From Podarcis liolepis (taxonomy: Eukaryota): a stretch of 64,000 nucleotides of DNA. Of this stretch, positions 24,801-51,800 are shown one piece after another. A program made the position numbers and the translations under genes. The DNA lies in assembly GCA_965112155.1 (NCBI GenBank), contig OZ218103.1; one strand, given 5' to 3'. The notes beneath the pieces were generated by a model that ran no database searches, was not told where the DNA came from, and saw nothing but the letters and a program-made list of their open reading frames with translations. Positions within the stretch are counted from its first letter, which is position 1; the number at the start of each line of letters is the position of its first letter.

Positions 24801-27800
24801 CAGCTGGTCCAGTTGGCTTCTCTACATAGAATGGACAGCCCTAGAGTGCCTTTTACCCCAGGCAGCAAAATGTCTTGAGCCAGCCCTTTCAGGGGACAAT
24901 AGAACACATTATAAAGAGTTTTTATAAGAAAAACATATAAAAAGCATGTTAACCTAGCCACTTGGGGGCTTAGCTGGAGATTGCATTTGCTATTAAGCAA
25001 ATGTATGATATTAATTACATTTGTTCCTAAGAAAGTTACCAATGCATTTGCAAGCCGGCCTTTGTTCTTGTCGGGGAGCAAAACAAGCTTCTCTCTTACG
25101 GCATCTAGATTCTGAAGCAAGATAGATCCTAAACAAGGTAGTTTGCTGTATTTTTGTCCCAAGCAAAAGTCAAGATTGTTTTTATGGGAAGGATTTTTGA
25201 TTTATTTGATTTGTTTGCGTGTTGGCTGCTCTTCGGCCAAGGCTCTCAGAGCAGCTCATAAGAATTAAAACAATAATATACAATGACAGTGTGATAGCTC
25301 AGCCAGTAGAGCATGCGACTTAATCTCAGAGTTGTGGGTTCAAGGCCCACATTGGGCAAGAGATTCCTGCATCAAAGGGGGTTGGACAAGGTGACCCTCA
25401 GGGTCCCTTCCAGCTCTACAAGTCTACGATTCTGTGAATATCAAACTGTACAATATGTTGCTAATAAAGAAGGCAACATTCCAGCGTGATGAAACGCAAA
25501 CAAGCCGAAAGACCTGGGCAAATAAAAAGGTCCTCACCTGGCACCAAACAGAAAACCAAGGCTAAGGCTGTGTACTACATACCACACATTTTAATGCATC
25601 TTACTACCTCCGAAGGAATAACTTTTTCTTTTTATAAATGAAAATTAGGTATATTTACTGTTTGAAGCTGGACACAAAAAGGAGAGTCGCTGTTAAGAGA
25701 GGAAGAAGAGCAGTTGCCCAGTAGGATTGATTAATCTTTATTAAGTTGGTTAATATTAGTGGCTAACAGCAGAACTGAATACGGTACATATGAAATGTAT
25801 AGAATGAACACAGAGTCCATTAAACAGATTAAACATATGACGTTTGCATTTTCTACTAAAATGAGAATGGCTACATCATAGCAAGTAGGAAATGCCAAAA
25901 TAAATATATACCGGTAGATCAGCCTCAGAATAAATATGTAGAACAGCCCTGTATGCCTTCATCGCAAAGAAACAGAGAGCGCATTACTTGGTCAGGTGAC
26001 TCATGAGAGAATTGGTGGACTTGGCTCATTTCCAGAAGCGTTCTCTCTGGCCCTGGTCAAATACTCCAGTACTCCATCTGTTTAGAGAACTAAAGAAATA
26101 TTGTTTTGCCTTTTAGGCAACACTTTATATCCGGGTTTCTCCAGGAACCTGTTTAATGAACAACCAGTTTTGTTACACTAATCCCTAATAATGCTAGGAT
26201 AAACATAGTTTTGTTTGCTAAATATTTAGAATCTAGAGGAGCCCTGAGAATTTAGAGCAGTTGTGAATAAATATGCTTCGTAAAATCAACAACAACCACA
26301 GCTACAACAACAATCCCTGCCCCTGGATTCTATCACCTTGCTCTGCATAACTCAGAAATGATGCAGGGAGCAAAGGATGCCTTCCCTGCACCAGGCTTTG
26401 TGTGTGATCTCATGTTTTGCAAAGCCAAATCCATAGGTATAGGAAGAGCACTCCCTATTTTCTCTCGCTTGAAAATGCCACCCATCTAGCATTTCCCTTA
26501 TAAAGAAAACATGGGGTTGTGAATCCTGTGTTTTTTCTTCTAACATGTAGACCTGCCAGGAGTCGGGGAAATAGGATTTTGCTGCATGTAGTAAGGTAAC
26601 TGGAGCTCTCGTGTACCCTGGCTCTACTATGGATTTGGATAACATTTGTTCATACTCTGCACAACTACAGTACCAGCACAATTTCTTTCTAGTGGCATGA
26701 ACACCTTCTCTGGAAATGGGCTTGTGCTTAGTAAATGGAATCTTATCTGCTTTAAGGTCTGGCTTGTTATCAACAGAACAGTTATTCAAAACTGCCTTGA
26801 TTCTGGAATTTGTAGGCATATGCATAGGATTATAAAAGTCCAGTTTATTCTCTCAGTTAATATAAATTAGAAGTAGCTGCTCTAGAGAATAGAATTGCAT
26901 GTGTCTATAAGATAGACCAGCCCGTGGCACGTTTAGTGTGCTACCTTAATGTTGGGGCCACCAAATCTAGTTTACATGTTCCTATTGTGCAAAATTCTGC
27001 GGCTCTGAGCATAATAACCTGATGTCCTGTGGAGAGCCAATCTTCTATAATAAGTGGGAAAGCATCTATCATTGGTGCTAAATGCGCTTGGTGTTATTTC
27101 ACCCCTGCACTTTCTCTTTCAGTCTGAATACCATTATGAATACACAGCATGTAACAGCCAAGGCTCCAGATGGAGAGTAGCTGTGCCGCACAACCCAGGA
27201 CTCTGCACCGGCTTGCCAGACCCCATCAAAGGCACAAAATGCTGTAAGCTATGACTGCTGTCACCACACCTTCCCTTTACATGGTTTATTCCAGCCAACT
27301 GGAGGCTCCAGAGCCACGTTGAGCCATGGGGCACGAGATGTCACATCGTGCAATGTGTTAAAATGAGGTCTACCCTTGTTAATAGTTGAACATTCAGAAG
27401 AGAGAGATACCAATTTCATGCTTAGAATATCCTTGAATGCAGGCGGTGACCATTTTTCGTGCATCTGATTGCCGTGCAACCGCCAATGCCTGTGTTGCTT
27501 TTGGCCCCAGAAGGGGATGGAATGGGTTTACTTGCGACTGCTGACACGTGCAATGACCCGGAACGCAACCCCCACACAGGTGGAGAGTTGCCTGTATTTT
27601 GTGTATGTTAACTTCCCACACATACAGTTAGCATTGGCATACGTGACTTGAAATTGACATGTTGCTGAAATTTTGTAATGATGCACTTAGATACAAATTT
27701 GGACACCCCCCCCCAATGTTAATGGCTGGGGGAGTGGGAGGATGGTGCAGTATTGCCTCTCCATTGCTGACGGTGCTCTGCTATGCCAGAGGTCCTGAGC

Positions 27801-36800: not shown

Positions 36801-39800
36801 AAATCTCTGAACAGTGTGCTCTAGGTTTGCTGCTGGAGGATTAGTTAGGGCACTTTCTCCATATTGTACTTTGTAGGAGCCCAGAGAAACCTACAGCAGC
36901 CTATCTTTCCAGCCTTTAAAGCTATGCATACATTCTCTCTACACTACAGCATTAGAACTTGGTCCTACAAAAGAGTTTTGCCCTCCAGCAGCAAAAACGT
37001 TAATTTTACTGTGATATCTTAAGCTGACTACTACAAATCAACTTATTTATCCCATGCATCCTCATCCCGGGTTCTCATTTGTTGCAGATTCAGAATGACC
37101 AGTGCCAGCCAACTGTAGAGGAGTCACGATGGATGAGAACCACAGAGAAAGGGTGGGAGACGCACACTGTAAGTGCACAGAGCTCCTTAACTGTGCTTAT
37201 GGCCCACAGGAGCTTGGAGAAGGAGACCTGTGTGTGCTTCTGGGACTCCGTACTGAAGTCCCAAACGGTACAGCCTTTGAGTATCAGCTGGGACTTGAAC
37301 TGTCTGTGCTTTGAACATTTGCAGGTGCAGCTGAGTCAGGGCAACAATGTTCTGTTTTGGAGAACGACAGCCTTCTCTGTGTGGTCCAAAACTCCCAAGC
37401 CTGTGTTGGTGAGGAACATTGAGATTACAGGTTTGTGTTTGGTTGGTGCATGTCTCGGGTCTGATGCCACTATGCAAGCTGTCGTTGTGCCCAGCAGCGG
37501 CTAAAAGGTTTTTTTTCCTCTCTTGCACTGCTATCCAACCTCACTCCTTTCCTCCCCCCTGTTCCCTAGGAGTAGCCTTCACTTCTGAATGCTTTCCCTG
37601 CAAGGCAGGCACCTACACAGCCAAATTAGGTTCTTCCTTCTGCCAGCCATGCCCAGCAAACTCCTACTCCAGCAAAACAGCTACTTCCTGTCACCAGTGC
37701 GAGCCGGCAATGTACTCAGGTAAGCACCTTAGCTAATTATCAGAAAACTTATGAAGGAGGCTGATTTATGACTTTGAAGTATAGGAAGCTGCTTTTATAT
37801 GGAGTCCATCTTGCTCAATATTGTCTACACTGACTGGCAGTGGCTCTCCAGGGTTTATGGCAGGAATCTCTCCCAGCCCTACCTGGGGATGTTGGGGATT
37901 GAACTTGGGACCTTCTATATGCAAGGCAGGGGCAGTACCACTGAGCTATGGGTATTCCCATAGCTTTACTAAGCAAAAGTATCCCGTATCCCCAGCTGTT
38001 TGCCCAGCTTCCAAGTTCAGTTGAATATGCTACCTAAATCTTCCTGCCAGCTTAGAACCCATTGCACCTGCTCTAACGAAGAAAATCCAGTTGCTCTTCT
38101 TTCTCCTCTTCAAAAATGTAATTAATGTAGCCATGTTCTTTCCCCTGTAAGAGGCTAAGTCTGCAGTGTTGGGTACTGCTTTTGCTTTTGCTTGTAATGA
38201 TTTGGCATCATCCCTCTGATCACACACACCATTTTCTTTCTCCCAGTAACATTCACAAGCATGTGAAACTGAGGGGGAGAGGAGGGAAAACAGTAAGCGA
38301 AGATGAAACCAAAAGCCTGGGGTAGCCAGTGTAGTGCCCACCCAGATGAGCCTCAGTCAGCCCAAACCAGAATAGACAGTGGGTCAAAGATGATGGGAGC
38401 TCCTGGGAGACAGCCCATTAGCTATCCTTGCCAAAAGCTATTTCTAAGCAGTTTCCATTAACACAAGCACCAAGAAGTATCGTTTTAACTTCCTCCTGGC
38501 TTATTGATAGCGAGGCATTTAAAAGTGCAGTTATTTAAATTCCCTTCATCATTGGAGGGTGTTGGCATGCTTAGAAGCATTTATTATTGCAAGATGGAAG
38601 CATAGGGAACCCCCCCCCCCAGCTTTTGCATGCCCACTTGGGTGCCATTTTCCTTCTTCCCTGGGCATTTGATAAGTTTGAGAAAGTTGCGGGGTGGGGA
38701 CTGGCAAGCAAGATTACTCGCAACAATGGAGAAATTAGCCCAGCCTGGATCTATATGAGCTTTGGAAAATTACTGGGGAAATCTTGAGCTTTTTCAGAGA
38801 ATTCTCCAAACAAAAGTTTGGCAAGATCTAGCCCATTAAATGTAGGCACATTTTTATCCTCTCCATGGAAAGTAGGTCTAAGTCTCAAGCAGATTTTTGA
38901 TCCGTAGTTCTGTGTTTTTGGAGGAATTTTACACAGCTGGATTTGGGGCATCATTCTCATGTATTGCTCTCTGCATAATGAGGGATATATTTTGTTAGCG
39001 CCTTCATGCTTTGAGCAATTTGCTCAGTTCTATGGAACTCTGCCTTGCAGAAAGACTTGGAAAGTTACTTTCAAATTACAGGCTCATAGCAGTTTCATTC
39101 CTCTTTGTGATTGCTTAGAATCACAGAATCACAGAATTGTAGAGTTGGAAGGGACCACGGGGGTCATTTAGTCCAACCCCCTGCAATGCAGCAATCTTTT
39201 GCCCAGCATGGGGCTTGAACCCATTACTCTTGAGATTAAGAGTCTCATGTTCTACCGACTTAGCTATCTCAGGCTTGCATCATATTTGGCAAGTGCAATA
39301 TCAGTGTTGTCTGTTCCCCTATAAGAAGTGGCAGCAGTTGGCACATCAGACTGCAGCATTTTGATTGGTTGCTGTCGTGTAGGAAGACTTTGACTTGATC
39401 AGCTTCAAAACCTTATGCTTGAAGCATTTTACCAGGCTGCTGGAAACTATAGGAGACGACAATGGACCTTGGGTTTCCCCTTTCCTACATGGGGAAGGGA
39501 GTATTCAGCTTAATGACAAAATGCTCCATCTTCAGGGCAAAATCCCTGCAATTTTCTCATCAATTGCTGCCACTTTTTCTTACCCTAAAAGGGCTGGGAA
39601 CTGCCTGCTCCTTTAACATGATACAAAAATGTGTTCTTTGTTCCCGTCAAATTCAATTGTCTTAAGCAAATAGAAGGCAAATGGCTTCTAACAATTTCTA
39701 GGAGAACAAATGTTGGAACTGAAGCCTGAAACGACCTGTACATCTGCAAACATGCACACACTGCCCTTCTCATTGCTCCGGTTAAATACACTGAATAGAT

Positions 39801-48800: not shown

Positions 48801-51800
48801 AATATGTAAATAAATGCTCTCGATGCTGTAAAAATAGTCACACTGAGAACAGCACTTACTTTCGTATTGGGTGCACTCGCTTCCAATTCCAGTTGTAATT
48901 TATATTTCAGTTTTGTCCACTCCTATGTTTCAAGCTGGCTGCTCATCTTGTTTATGCATTTTAATAGTTGCTTTTTTAAATGAGAACTAAGGAATAATGA
49001 TTTAACAAAGACTGTAGCTCAGTGGTAGAGCATCTGCTTTGCATGCCGAAGGTCTCTAGTTCAGTCCCCGGCATCTCCTGATAGGGCTGAGAATGTCCCG
49101 TCTGAAATCCTGGAGAGCCTCTTCCACTACACTTGATCTTAGCCAAAAGGCCGAGAAGCGATCTGGAGAGCCTCTTCCAGACAACATAAACAATACTGAG
49201 TAGCTGGAGGTCAGACATGGCATAGGGTAGCTTCCTGTGTTCACAACCCTTCTAAAGGCAAAACTAAAAGATGCATAAAAGCATCTCCACTGCTTAAAGC
49301 TTTCTCCCCCCCCCCCCCAATAGTAGCTATAACAGTTCCAGTCTGGGTCAGGCCTATAGCACAAGATGAAGTTGTGTTAACATTGACCCTTTCCACTCTG
49401 CACCATTCCCCCAGTGGTGCTACCCCCCCCCAATAAAAGGCTGCTGTTCCTGATGCAGGGGAAATAGAAATGTGCATATGATTTTCCTGCTGTGGAGTTA
49501 TTTTCATTGGAAAAATGATACGGGGAGGAATACTAAAACTACTTTATTGTGCTGCACTATAGTCCCAGTCTGGTTTGGGAGGTGTAGCTATTTTTTTGGC
49601 AAAAAGTGTAAAGACACCAAGTTGCATTCATATGCCACCAACTTTATATGACGTTTATCACTGTGACACACTTCTGGAACCCAGTTCAGTCTCATTTACA
49701 TTTACAGACCTAACCTATCGGCATAAGCTTTGCCATATCCGTTCCTTCACATACCAACACAACTTCTTTACCTCTTTAAAATGCAGAGGTCTATTGGGTA
49801 TAGTCAGAGTATAATGGTGGTAACAATTAAGCCTATCATAACCTTGCAGGGTTTAAATTCTTTCATGAATGTCACAGGTCTCCAAGAGGCCTGTGTAACT
49901 CAGATACAGGAAATGCTTAAGACCTATTGACAGCTATGAAAGAAATAGCATTTACAGCAAGAACAAGTGTTCCATGCAGCAGAGTTCATGCGCTACGTAC
50001 ATGAGGCATGGCTTTGGTTCCCTGGAGTCACTTTCATGGCAGGTCTGGGACAAGGTAATGTCTTGAGACCCACAACAGCTAGGTCATGAGGTGAGCCACT
50101 GATTAGACTCCATTTCAGATGGCACTTTATAATTTTTCAAACAGCAAGTGCCCTGAAGGAACCTGTGACGGATGCACTTTCCATTTCCTGTGGGAGACCG
50201 TTGAAGCCTGCCCCCTCTGTTCTGCAGATGACTACCATGCTATCATCAGCGCCTGTGTTGGAGGGATTCAGGTAGGGACTCAGAATGCCTTCTTTTGAGT
50301 TCTTATCTTCAGGGCCTGAGAGCTGCCCATTTTTGTGACTATTATATGAACATTAAAACAAGTCATCAACAGCTACGGCAGCCCAATGATCATTTAGTGA
50401 ACATGCCCGTTAGGACAGGCAGAGACACTAGATTGAAATAAACATTTTCCCCCCCTGGAGTTGTCACAAAACCATACTTGTCTGATCTTAAACATGCTTA
50501 CCTGAAGTCAGTTCCACTGATTTCACAACAATAAACCGCTTCAGTAGCAGGTTCAGCAATGATGTACCGATTTATTTTTGTTAAGAGGATTCAAGATCCC
50601 TCTAGAGTGGTGGTGGTGGTACAACTATTATTGTTGCTTCGAATCTGTAAGGTGGCATCAACGCTACATTTCTATATTGGTTTCAGTTTATTTCCCTGAA
50701 AACCATTTCTAAATGGCTTAGCATAAAATCTCTCCTAAGTGCTACAGGGTAAAACAGAAATGTACAGTAAGACCATCAGCATCAAAAAGAGTACAAAAAT
50801 GCAACATGAGCTGCGACTGCATGTGATTAAAAGAAGGCAATGCCTGCTTTTCCTTCCACAGAGAACCACGTATGTATGGAGGGAGCCCAAGCTGTGTTCA
50901 GGAGGCATTTCGCTCCCAGATCAAAAAGTCAGCATTTGCAAATCCATGGACTTCTGGCTCAAAGTGGGCATCTCGGCGGGGACTTGTGCTGCTATCCTGC
51001 TGGCTGCAATGACTTGCTACTTCTGGAAGAAAAACCAGAAGTGAGTAGCTGCTTCTTTTGCTGCCCATTATGCATGCATGCTTGCTGGCTGGCTTACTTG
51101 CTTGCTTCATAGCTGCCCAATACCTTTTTCAAGGTTGCCCTTTAAATCAGATGGCAACCTTGAACAGCACAGCAGAAGCAAATAGGTGAGTCTGTGTTCA
51201 AAAATAACAAGCTCTTCAATAATATGTCTATCTTTTATACATTGTTACATATCAGTGATAGCATTCTCGCCTTCCCCAGTTTGCCTTCTTATCACCCCAT
51301 TCTCAACCCTGCCTATTCTTCCATGCCCAAAACGCAAGAAAGACCCACCAAAAACAAACCAGTTTTTATTTTCCAGAAGCGTTAAGTGCATGCAACTTTA
51401 ACACATTCACAAACAGTGCATCCATTGCCCTGTTCAGTAGCACCTTGTGAAAGCGGTGCAGCTTGTGAAATGAGACTTCTTCATAAGGGCAGTGATATAT
51501 AGGGGAAGAAACCCCCCCCCACTCTTTACTTGTGGGCAATATGAGACACAGGGCATCAGGTTAGCATTGTGTAGTTACAGGGATGCTGACTGGCTAGGAG
51601 TGCCTATGACTTTTCACAAGCCACAGCCCTTTATGAGTCACCCCTTCACCATATTGCTACAAAACTTGCAGATGGATCCTGTGAATTAGTTTCCCAGCAT
51701 ATGCACTAGAAAAAGCTGGTGGCATTACCAGCAAATATTGAGTGGAGTTTGCTGAGCAGTGATCCAATTCCAGCTGTAGTTGTGATGAAACCTCTTCAAA

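Follow-up and report, generated by a model that had tools for sequence, protein, structure and literature searches.

A tailless U2 snRNA retropseudogene in an old lizard SINE, likely made by L1, and head-to-head U2 chimeras with other retrotransposons

Results

The window, a stretch of 64,000 nt from the lizard Podarcis liolepis (contig OZ218103.1), carries a 3′-truncated, tailless copy of U2 snRNA at 49126..49162 on the minus strand. We are fairly confident that it is a tailless retropseudogene, with the ORF2 protein of one of the genome's own L1 elements as its likely source. The insert and its duplication are observed at the locus itself and the empty site in a sister SINE; clustered 3′ ends and L1-like statistics are observed genome-wide.

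From 49162 (nt 1) to 49126 (nt 37), the minus strand equals nt 1-37 of U2 with zero mismatches (Rfam RF00004, E 3.4e-6). The same 37 nt are found in a full-length U2 gene of this genome (L045), and nt 38 differs. Rfam and the U2 gene thus both bear out the original prediction of a mismatch-free copy starting at nt 1. As also predicted, it lacks poly(A). The flanking 17-nt repeats, identical as had been described, lie at 49163..49179, adjoining U2 nt 1 with zero extra bases, and at 49110..49126, where on the U2 strand the shared base is followed by purines at 6 of 6 positions. The latter copy is likely the priming end. Since base 49126 doubles as U2 nt 37 and as the first base of the downstream repeat (a microhomology of 1 nt), the duplication measures 16 or 17 bp, and the locus has gained 53 bp net. 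The sequence at 49110-49179 is, as predicted, not a TT/AAAA target. The insert is real, as assembled. It spans nt 1-37 of 191 and agrees in size and in 5′ completeness with tailless retropseudogenes as defined in PMC5322556, where a copy has to be 30 nt or longer and to lack 10 nt or more at its 3′ end; its exact 17-nt duplication falls within their 8-35 nt, and it shows no oligo(A). The copy may be young, a dating that rests on two things, the perfect 37-nt match and the identical repeats, and the genome search selected exact matches. It carries neither the U2 promoter nor the 3′ part of U2 and is predicted to be inert.

The host of the insert is an old tRNA-derived SINE at 49013..49243 on the plus strand (ends approximate; tRNA head 49013-49073), in which the U2 copy lies antisense. 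The SINE resembles Squam3 by description only. A sister SINE at 37781..37951 on the minus strand, used for comparison only, is 75-79% identical to the host (over 37814-37948) and has the duplicated segment once, at 37835-37851; it therefore represents the empty site, as originally proposed. At positions 11 and 14 the two repeats both have T. None of 8 other copies of the SINE shares these bases (position 11 is G or A in 8/8, position 14 is G in 7/8), and the sister lacks them too. This places the U2 insertion after those changes in the host, again as predicted. Beyond the U2 locus, the sole Rfam match in the window is a SINE-type tRNA at 39200-39273, barely above the cut-off; it is probably a SINE head, inside a repeat shared with 25290-25437.

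The 1.57-Gb genome was searched for exact copies of U2 nt 1-29, a search that is blind to ends before nt 29 and to diverged copies. It gave 60 matches, all of which were retrieved, and a reversed-pattern control gave 0. Eight are full length (6 gene-like copies on one contig and 2 poly(A) retrocopies) and the other 52 are 3′-truncated. The unpaired stretch of U2 behind stem I is the branch-point-pairing region. Truncation ends fall at nt 31-41 in 50 of the 52 copies, which coincides with the segment left unpaired behind stem I in the RF00004 consensus; the two remaining copies end at nt 52 and nt 87. This clustering in a single-stranded region, seen here among ends that lie at or beyond nt 29, is another mark of tailless retropseudogenes. 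The narrower interval nt 33-37 holds 42/52 ends, including L060, whose exact match halts at a substitution. A defined mechanism with internal priming in the single-stranded branch-pairing region, as the original prediction had suggested, is therefore supported. The signature proposed for it was a sharp peak at nt 36-38 with long duplications; the ends cluster at nt 33-37, with 2/52 at nt 38, and the median duplication is 16 bp.

A fixed rule, which fires on 0/400 mismatched flank pairs, detects a duplication in 30 of the 44 candidate solo copies (median 16 bp) and none in the remaining 14; among these is L033, whose L1 partner was recognised afterwards. The junction has no shared base in 17/30 solo copies and 1-3 nt of microhomology in 13/30, so that priming by base pairing is weakly supported. 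An Rfam search of the genome returned 47 longer U2 copies and added no data on the stubs.

Several other features were noted in the course of the census. Six full-length U2 genes, dispersed but similar in their flanks (L042-L047, G000:C16:10.9-13.0 Mb), include one with a 7-nt internal deletion (L044). At the U2 3′ junction of L004, L006, L008, L010, L027, L032, L041, L053 and L055, dinucleotide or 5-mer units of the U2 end recur in short tandem arrays, as if the enzyme had slipped and re-primed on U2. In L003 (1501-1560), U2 nt 1-35 is joined by eye to about nt 46-53, followed by a 9-bp duplication, possibly a template jump within U2. The stubs L029 and L056 lie inside repeats; judged by eye, each has apparently lost about 30-40 bp of the target rather than duplicating it. 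L028/L219, L208 and L218 are same-orientation chimeras with U2, which we take to combine U2 nt 1-87 with a downstream L2-like 3′ end, or to place U2 pieces beside U6-like sequence. Long frames a few kb from one stub (L068, around L037) presumably resemble vomeronasal type-2 receptor exons.

To identify the enzyme, the U2 stubs were compared with insertions of the genome's own L1 and non-L1 families. The L1 control was one young family (L167-L196), in which 22/30 copies have a duplication under the rule used for U2. The non-L1 control consisted of a Sauria-type SINE (20/29 copies with duplication), two microsatellite-tailed LINE families (6/29 each) and a BovB-type family (10/30). Two segmental duplicates and L099 were dropped from the lists of LINE copies ahead of the count. 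Control copies are the best-scoring 29-30 of each family rather than random ones, and CR1, L2, R4, Vingi, Tx1 and Penelope lie outside the sample. Only 2/22 L1 insertions come within one mismatch of TT/AAAA, the family using a loose T/purine-run site instead. Absence of TT/AAAA therefore says nothing against L1 here, and a non-L1 origin argued from it was rejected. Uninterrupted RT frames of about 1250 aa are numerous in the genome, and both of those tested group with L1. Near-identical L1 RT frames are densely clustered on one contig (G000:C20:24-30 Mb), which suggests a repeat-rich or duplicated region. A literature search returned nothing specific on L1 target sites in lizards.

Solo U2 copies and L1 both have a median duplication of 16 bp (n=30 and n=22, p=0.44). 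The non-L1 median is 12 and the maximum 15 (n=42: 20 SINE, 12 two-ORF LINE and 10 BovB-type), different from solo U2 at p=1.6e-5; duplications of at least 16 bp make up 18/30, 14/22 and 0/42 in solo U2, L1 and non-L1, respectively. After removal of microhomology, the solo U2 median is still 16 (p=9e-4 against 32 non-L1 inserts). Moreover, the purine share at duplication positions 2-7 is 0.67 in U2, 0.70 in L1 and 0.49 in non-L1 (U2 against non-L1, p=0.003). The bias of the U2 stubs is confined to the U2 3′ end, and the other end shows 0.48; an L1 motif there would have pointed to second-nick priming, which was rejected on this value. By duplication length and purine bias the target is thus the type used by this genome's L1, not the mammalian TT/AAAA. 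With its 16-17 bp duplication and 6/6 purines, the 49126 locus is L1-like on both counts, and the non-L1 enzyme originally predicted for it is not supported. A mixture estimate attributes to L1 a share of 0.94 of the solo copies that have a duplication (95% bootstrap lower bound 0.61). The slippage repeats resemble the variable microsatellite tails of non-L1 families and 14/44 candidates have no duplication, so the solo set is probably mixed in origin. At 49126, where the enzyme itself is unseen, L1 is the likely one on statistical grounds.

In eight of the 52 truncated copies, U2 nt 1 abuts the 5′ end of a LINE or SINE that runs in the opposite direction. A duplication encloses both parts (11-18 bp in six, 7 bp in one, none in one) and encloses U2 alone in 0/8. 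Six partners are non-L1 (L009, L020, L023, L035, L041 and L057). L020 has a LINE partner of 3163 nt, L057 one of 1518 nt and L035 one of 587 nt, with duplications of 14, 14 and 13 bp. L041 has only a 25-nt tail, from which its clade was guessed, and a 14-bp duplication. In L009 the partner is a complete 346-nt Sauria-type SINE with an 11-bp duplication; the long loci L062 and L072 are among those of L009, L020, L035, L041 and L057. The L009 partner has an (ACCTTT)n tail and a duplication starting with T then A, and the BovB LINE tail is (CAA)n, as described in PMC13295347. L023 (L064) is a weaker case, with a partner of about 815 nt, by eye of the same clade as the L057 kin, and a 7-bp duplication. 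Of the two L1 partners, that of L022 (L063:5973-9444, minus strand) is 3472 nt long, runs from the 5′ end through ORF1 and the endonuclease to an internal A-run in ORF2; U2 nt 1-41 is attached to it head-to-head, an 18-bp duplication surrounds the pair, and the L1 RNA and the U2 RNA both appear to have been internally primed. The other, L033, is weaker, with about 600 nt of L1 and no duplication. When 10 kb upstream of 16 stubs without a clear local duplication were searched, L020, L022 and L057 showed a distant duplication at the tail of the partner, 11/16 had no far duplication within that distance, and L023 and L033 were settled by eye. At the inversion junction there are 2 nt of homology to the start of U2 in the truncated partners L057 (in 9/11 covering matches) and L023 (1 match) and 0 nt in two 5′-complete partners; four others were outside this check.

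The partners of L020, L057 and L035 share 25-52% amino-acid identity with one another. In the L057 family, complete copies contain two frames, with an endonuclease and an RT, the latter about 25% identical to the local L1. In an RT tree of 12 rows, all that remained after de-duplication and none of them a labelled reference, the partners form their own clade (99/95) apart from L1 (100/100), and their branching relative to BovB-type and L2/CR1-type rows is indistinct. Against PDB, the partner RT matches L1 and R2 at similarly weak scores, whereas the L1 partner scores E 1e-76. Pfam searches of the partner LINEs returned RT and endonuclease domains and no clade; none of the 120 homologues listed carries a clade name, and in the Atlas nothing exceeded 0.84 for the partner ORF1. 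We tentatively take this two-ORF, microsatellite-tailed clade to be RTE-X-like. One LINE family (L078-L106) has a microsatellite tail that varies from copy to copy (4-mer, 3-mer or 5-mer) behind a constant end containing AATAAA.

Discussion

The events at 49126 may be pictured as follows. The L1 endonuclease would nick the old SINE just before a purine run. With the help of one base pair at most, the exposed 3′ end would serve as primer on the U2 snRNA itself, and copying would start at nt 36/37, within the unpaired stretch behind stem I that recognises the branch point. The cDNA would then be extended to the U2 5′ end, and a second nick 16-17 bp away would create the duplication. Direct internal priming by L1 is the published model for tailless retropseudogenes, as presented in PMC5322556, PMC4476161 and PMC2912911.

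A BovB/RTE element or a member of the two-ORF, microsatellite-tailed LINE clade could also have made the copy, whether it acted at the first nick or, losing its own partner cDNA, at the second. Activity, or at least youth, is indicated by uninterrupted BovB-type frames of 1036 aa and by copies 97-98% identical; six U2 stubs are joined to such elements head-to-head, and several solo stubs have slippage repeats or, next to U2 nt 1, an extra 1-10 bases. However, none of the 42 insertions sampled from these elements reaches 16 bp and they lack the purine bias, and their own six U2 chimeras stay at 7-14 bp, while the 49126 locus combines a 16-17 bp duplication and six purines with zero extra bases and no slippage. 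We consider this origin unlikely. Lizards have many active LINE clades (PMC5322556), and a maker from one that the control set left aside (Tx1, R4, Vingi, CR1, L2 or Penelope) is quite unlikely, given that L1 alone reproduces both duplication length and base bias and that an L2-dependent SINE is reported with very few duplications (PMC7983390). An assembly artefact, or capture of a U2 piece at the DNA level during break repair, is next to negligible as an explanation. The insert is known from assembled sequence, and the stubs L029 and L056 in target deletions would suit such capture, but a start exactly at nt 1, the end of the RNA, without any gene flank, together with a perfect long duplication and the same structure at about 30 independent loci, argues against it.

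The original prediction also named the Utopia and Keno retrotransposons, stating correctly that they target U2 near this position: in PMC4640811 the site lies after nt 38, the 3′ flank begins at nt 39, and reptile Utopia duplicates 20 bp. The copy might then be the 5′ stub of a U2-fused Utopia/Keno transcript or the scar of an insertion into a U2 gene. That site is one or two bases from the U2 end here, Utopia traces are listed for Anolis, and one old copy (L217) starts at nt 39. On the other side, ends are spread over nt 31-41 with 2/52 at nt 38, the 49126 locus ends at nt 36/37, and no copy has a same-orientation element behind nt 38. The 6 gene-like U2 copies are uninterrupted. Reptile Utopia duplicates 20 bp of U2 itself (PMC4640811), whereas here the host SINE is duplicated, and it is the host SINE, not an element followed by the rest of a U2 gene, that resumes behind the stub. 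Human U2 copies, too, are truncated in 57/58 (98%). L217 is the one copy starting at nt 39 among the U2 3′-part matches (30/34 examined), and it has no frame of at least 130 aa in the roughly 9-9.9 kb upstream. The Utopia/Keno origin was accordingly rejected on end spread, intact genes and the missing element, and we regard it as highly improbable; the near coincidence is best read as common use of the same conserved, exposed U2 segment.

Non-L1 enzymes do appear to use this U2 segment, as originally suggested, but at the head-to-head loci and probably not at 49126. The duplications of the six non-L1 chimeras (7-14 bp) are like those of their own families (p=0.69) and differ from those of L1 (p=0.004), which suggests that their own enzymes made the cuts. 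These loci are likely products of twin priming on U2 by non-L1 enzymes; the alternatives are that L1 acted in trans on the partner RNAs or that two insertions occurred at one break. On balance, we favour the view that LINEs of several clades can all fall back on the branch-pairing segment of lizard U2 as a general spare template. Non-L1 RTs (BovB carrying the Sauria SINE, and at least 3 families presumed to be RTE-X-like) would start on their own RNA at the first nick and on U2 at the second, and the U2 cDNA would seal the 5′ junction. Trans twin priming would then not be restricted to L1, and the stubs would record their enzyme by duplication length. In a literature search mostly without subscription papers and supplements, no report of U2 chimeras with non-L1 partners was found.

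The 49126 locus is itself of little weight, at most a phylogenetic marker: it is a known kind of event and one of about 50 such copies in this genome. The genome-wide data lend direct statistical support to the prediction of Noll et al. (2015, PMC5322556) that lizard copies originate from L1, and they make TT/AAAA useless for excluding L1 in this genome. The non-L1 head-to-head chimeras run against the statement of Doucet et al. (2015, PMC4476161) that chimeras formed by L2 and RTE clades arise by template switching only. If true, they would extend a mechanism described so far for L1, and they suggest a testable route for second-strand priming and 5′-junction formation in RTE-type LINEs.

The closest known system is that of the tailless retropseudogenes, which (PMC5322556, PMC4476161) have a complete 5′ end, truncation in a single-stranded region, no A-tail, an 8-35-bp duplication and short complementarity. 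The first four are found here, and complementarity at 49126 amounts to 1 nt. U2 is a main source of such copies, including in the green anole, where they are ascribed to a relaxed L1 (PMC5322556); the present case is from a different lizard lineage. Elsewhere the nick is at TT/AAAA, whereas here it is a looser step from pyrimidine to a purine run, likewise seen in this genome's L1. For the sister loci, the human twin-primed snRNA/L1 chimeras described in PMC4476161 offer a parallel, with the same truncated snRNA head-to-head in one duplication; the 49126 locus, in contrast, has no partner element. All the human cases are L1 or SVA, with 1/58 U2 copies, whereas here there are 6-8/52, mostly non-L1, although selection rules differ and the rates are only roughly comparable. 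Crocodilian SINEU (PMC4494074) is likewise a reptile retroposed U2 5′ sequence, but it forms amplified families with common 3′ bodies and poly(A), while the stubs here have unrelated flanks and no body. Finally, Utopia and Keno insert just behind U2 nt 38, near where the truncations peak, but they use U2 genes as DNA targets, whereas in the present copies U2 serves as the RNA template and the DNA target is unrelated to it.
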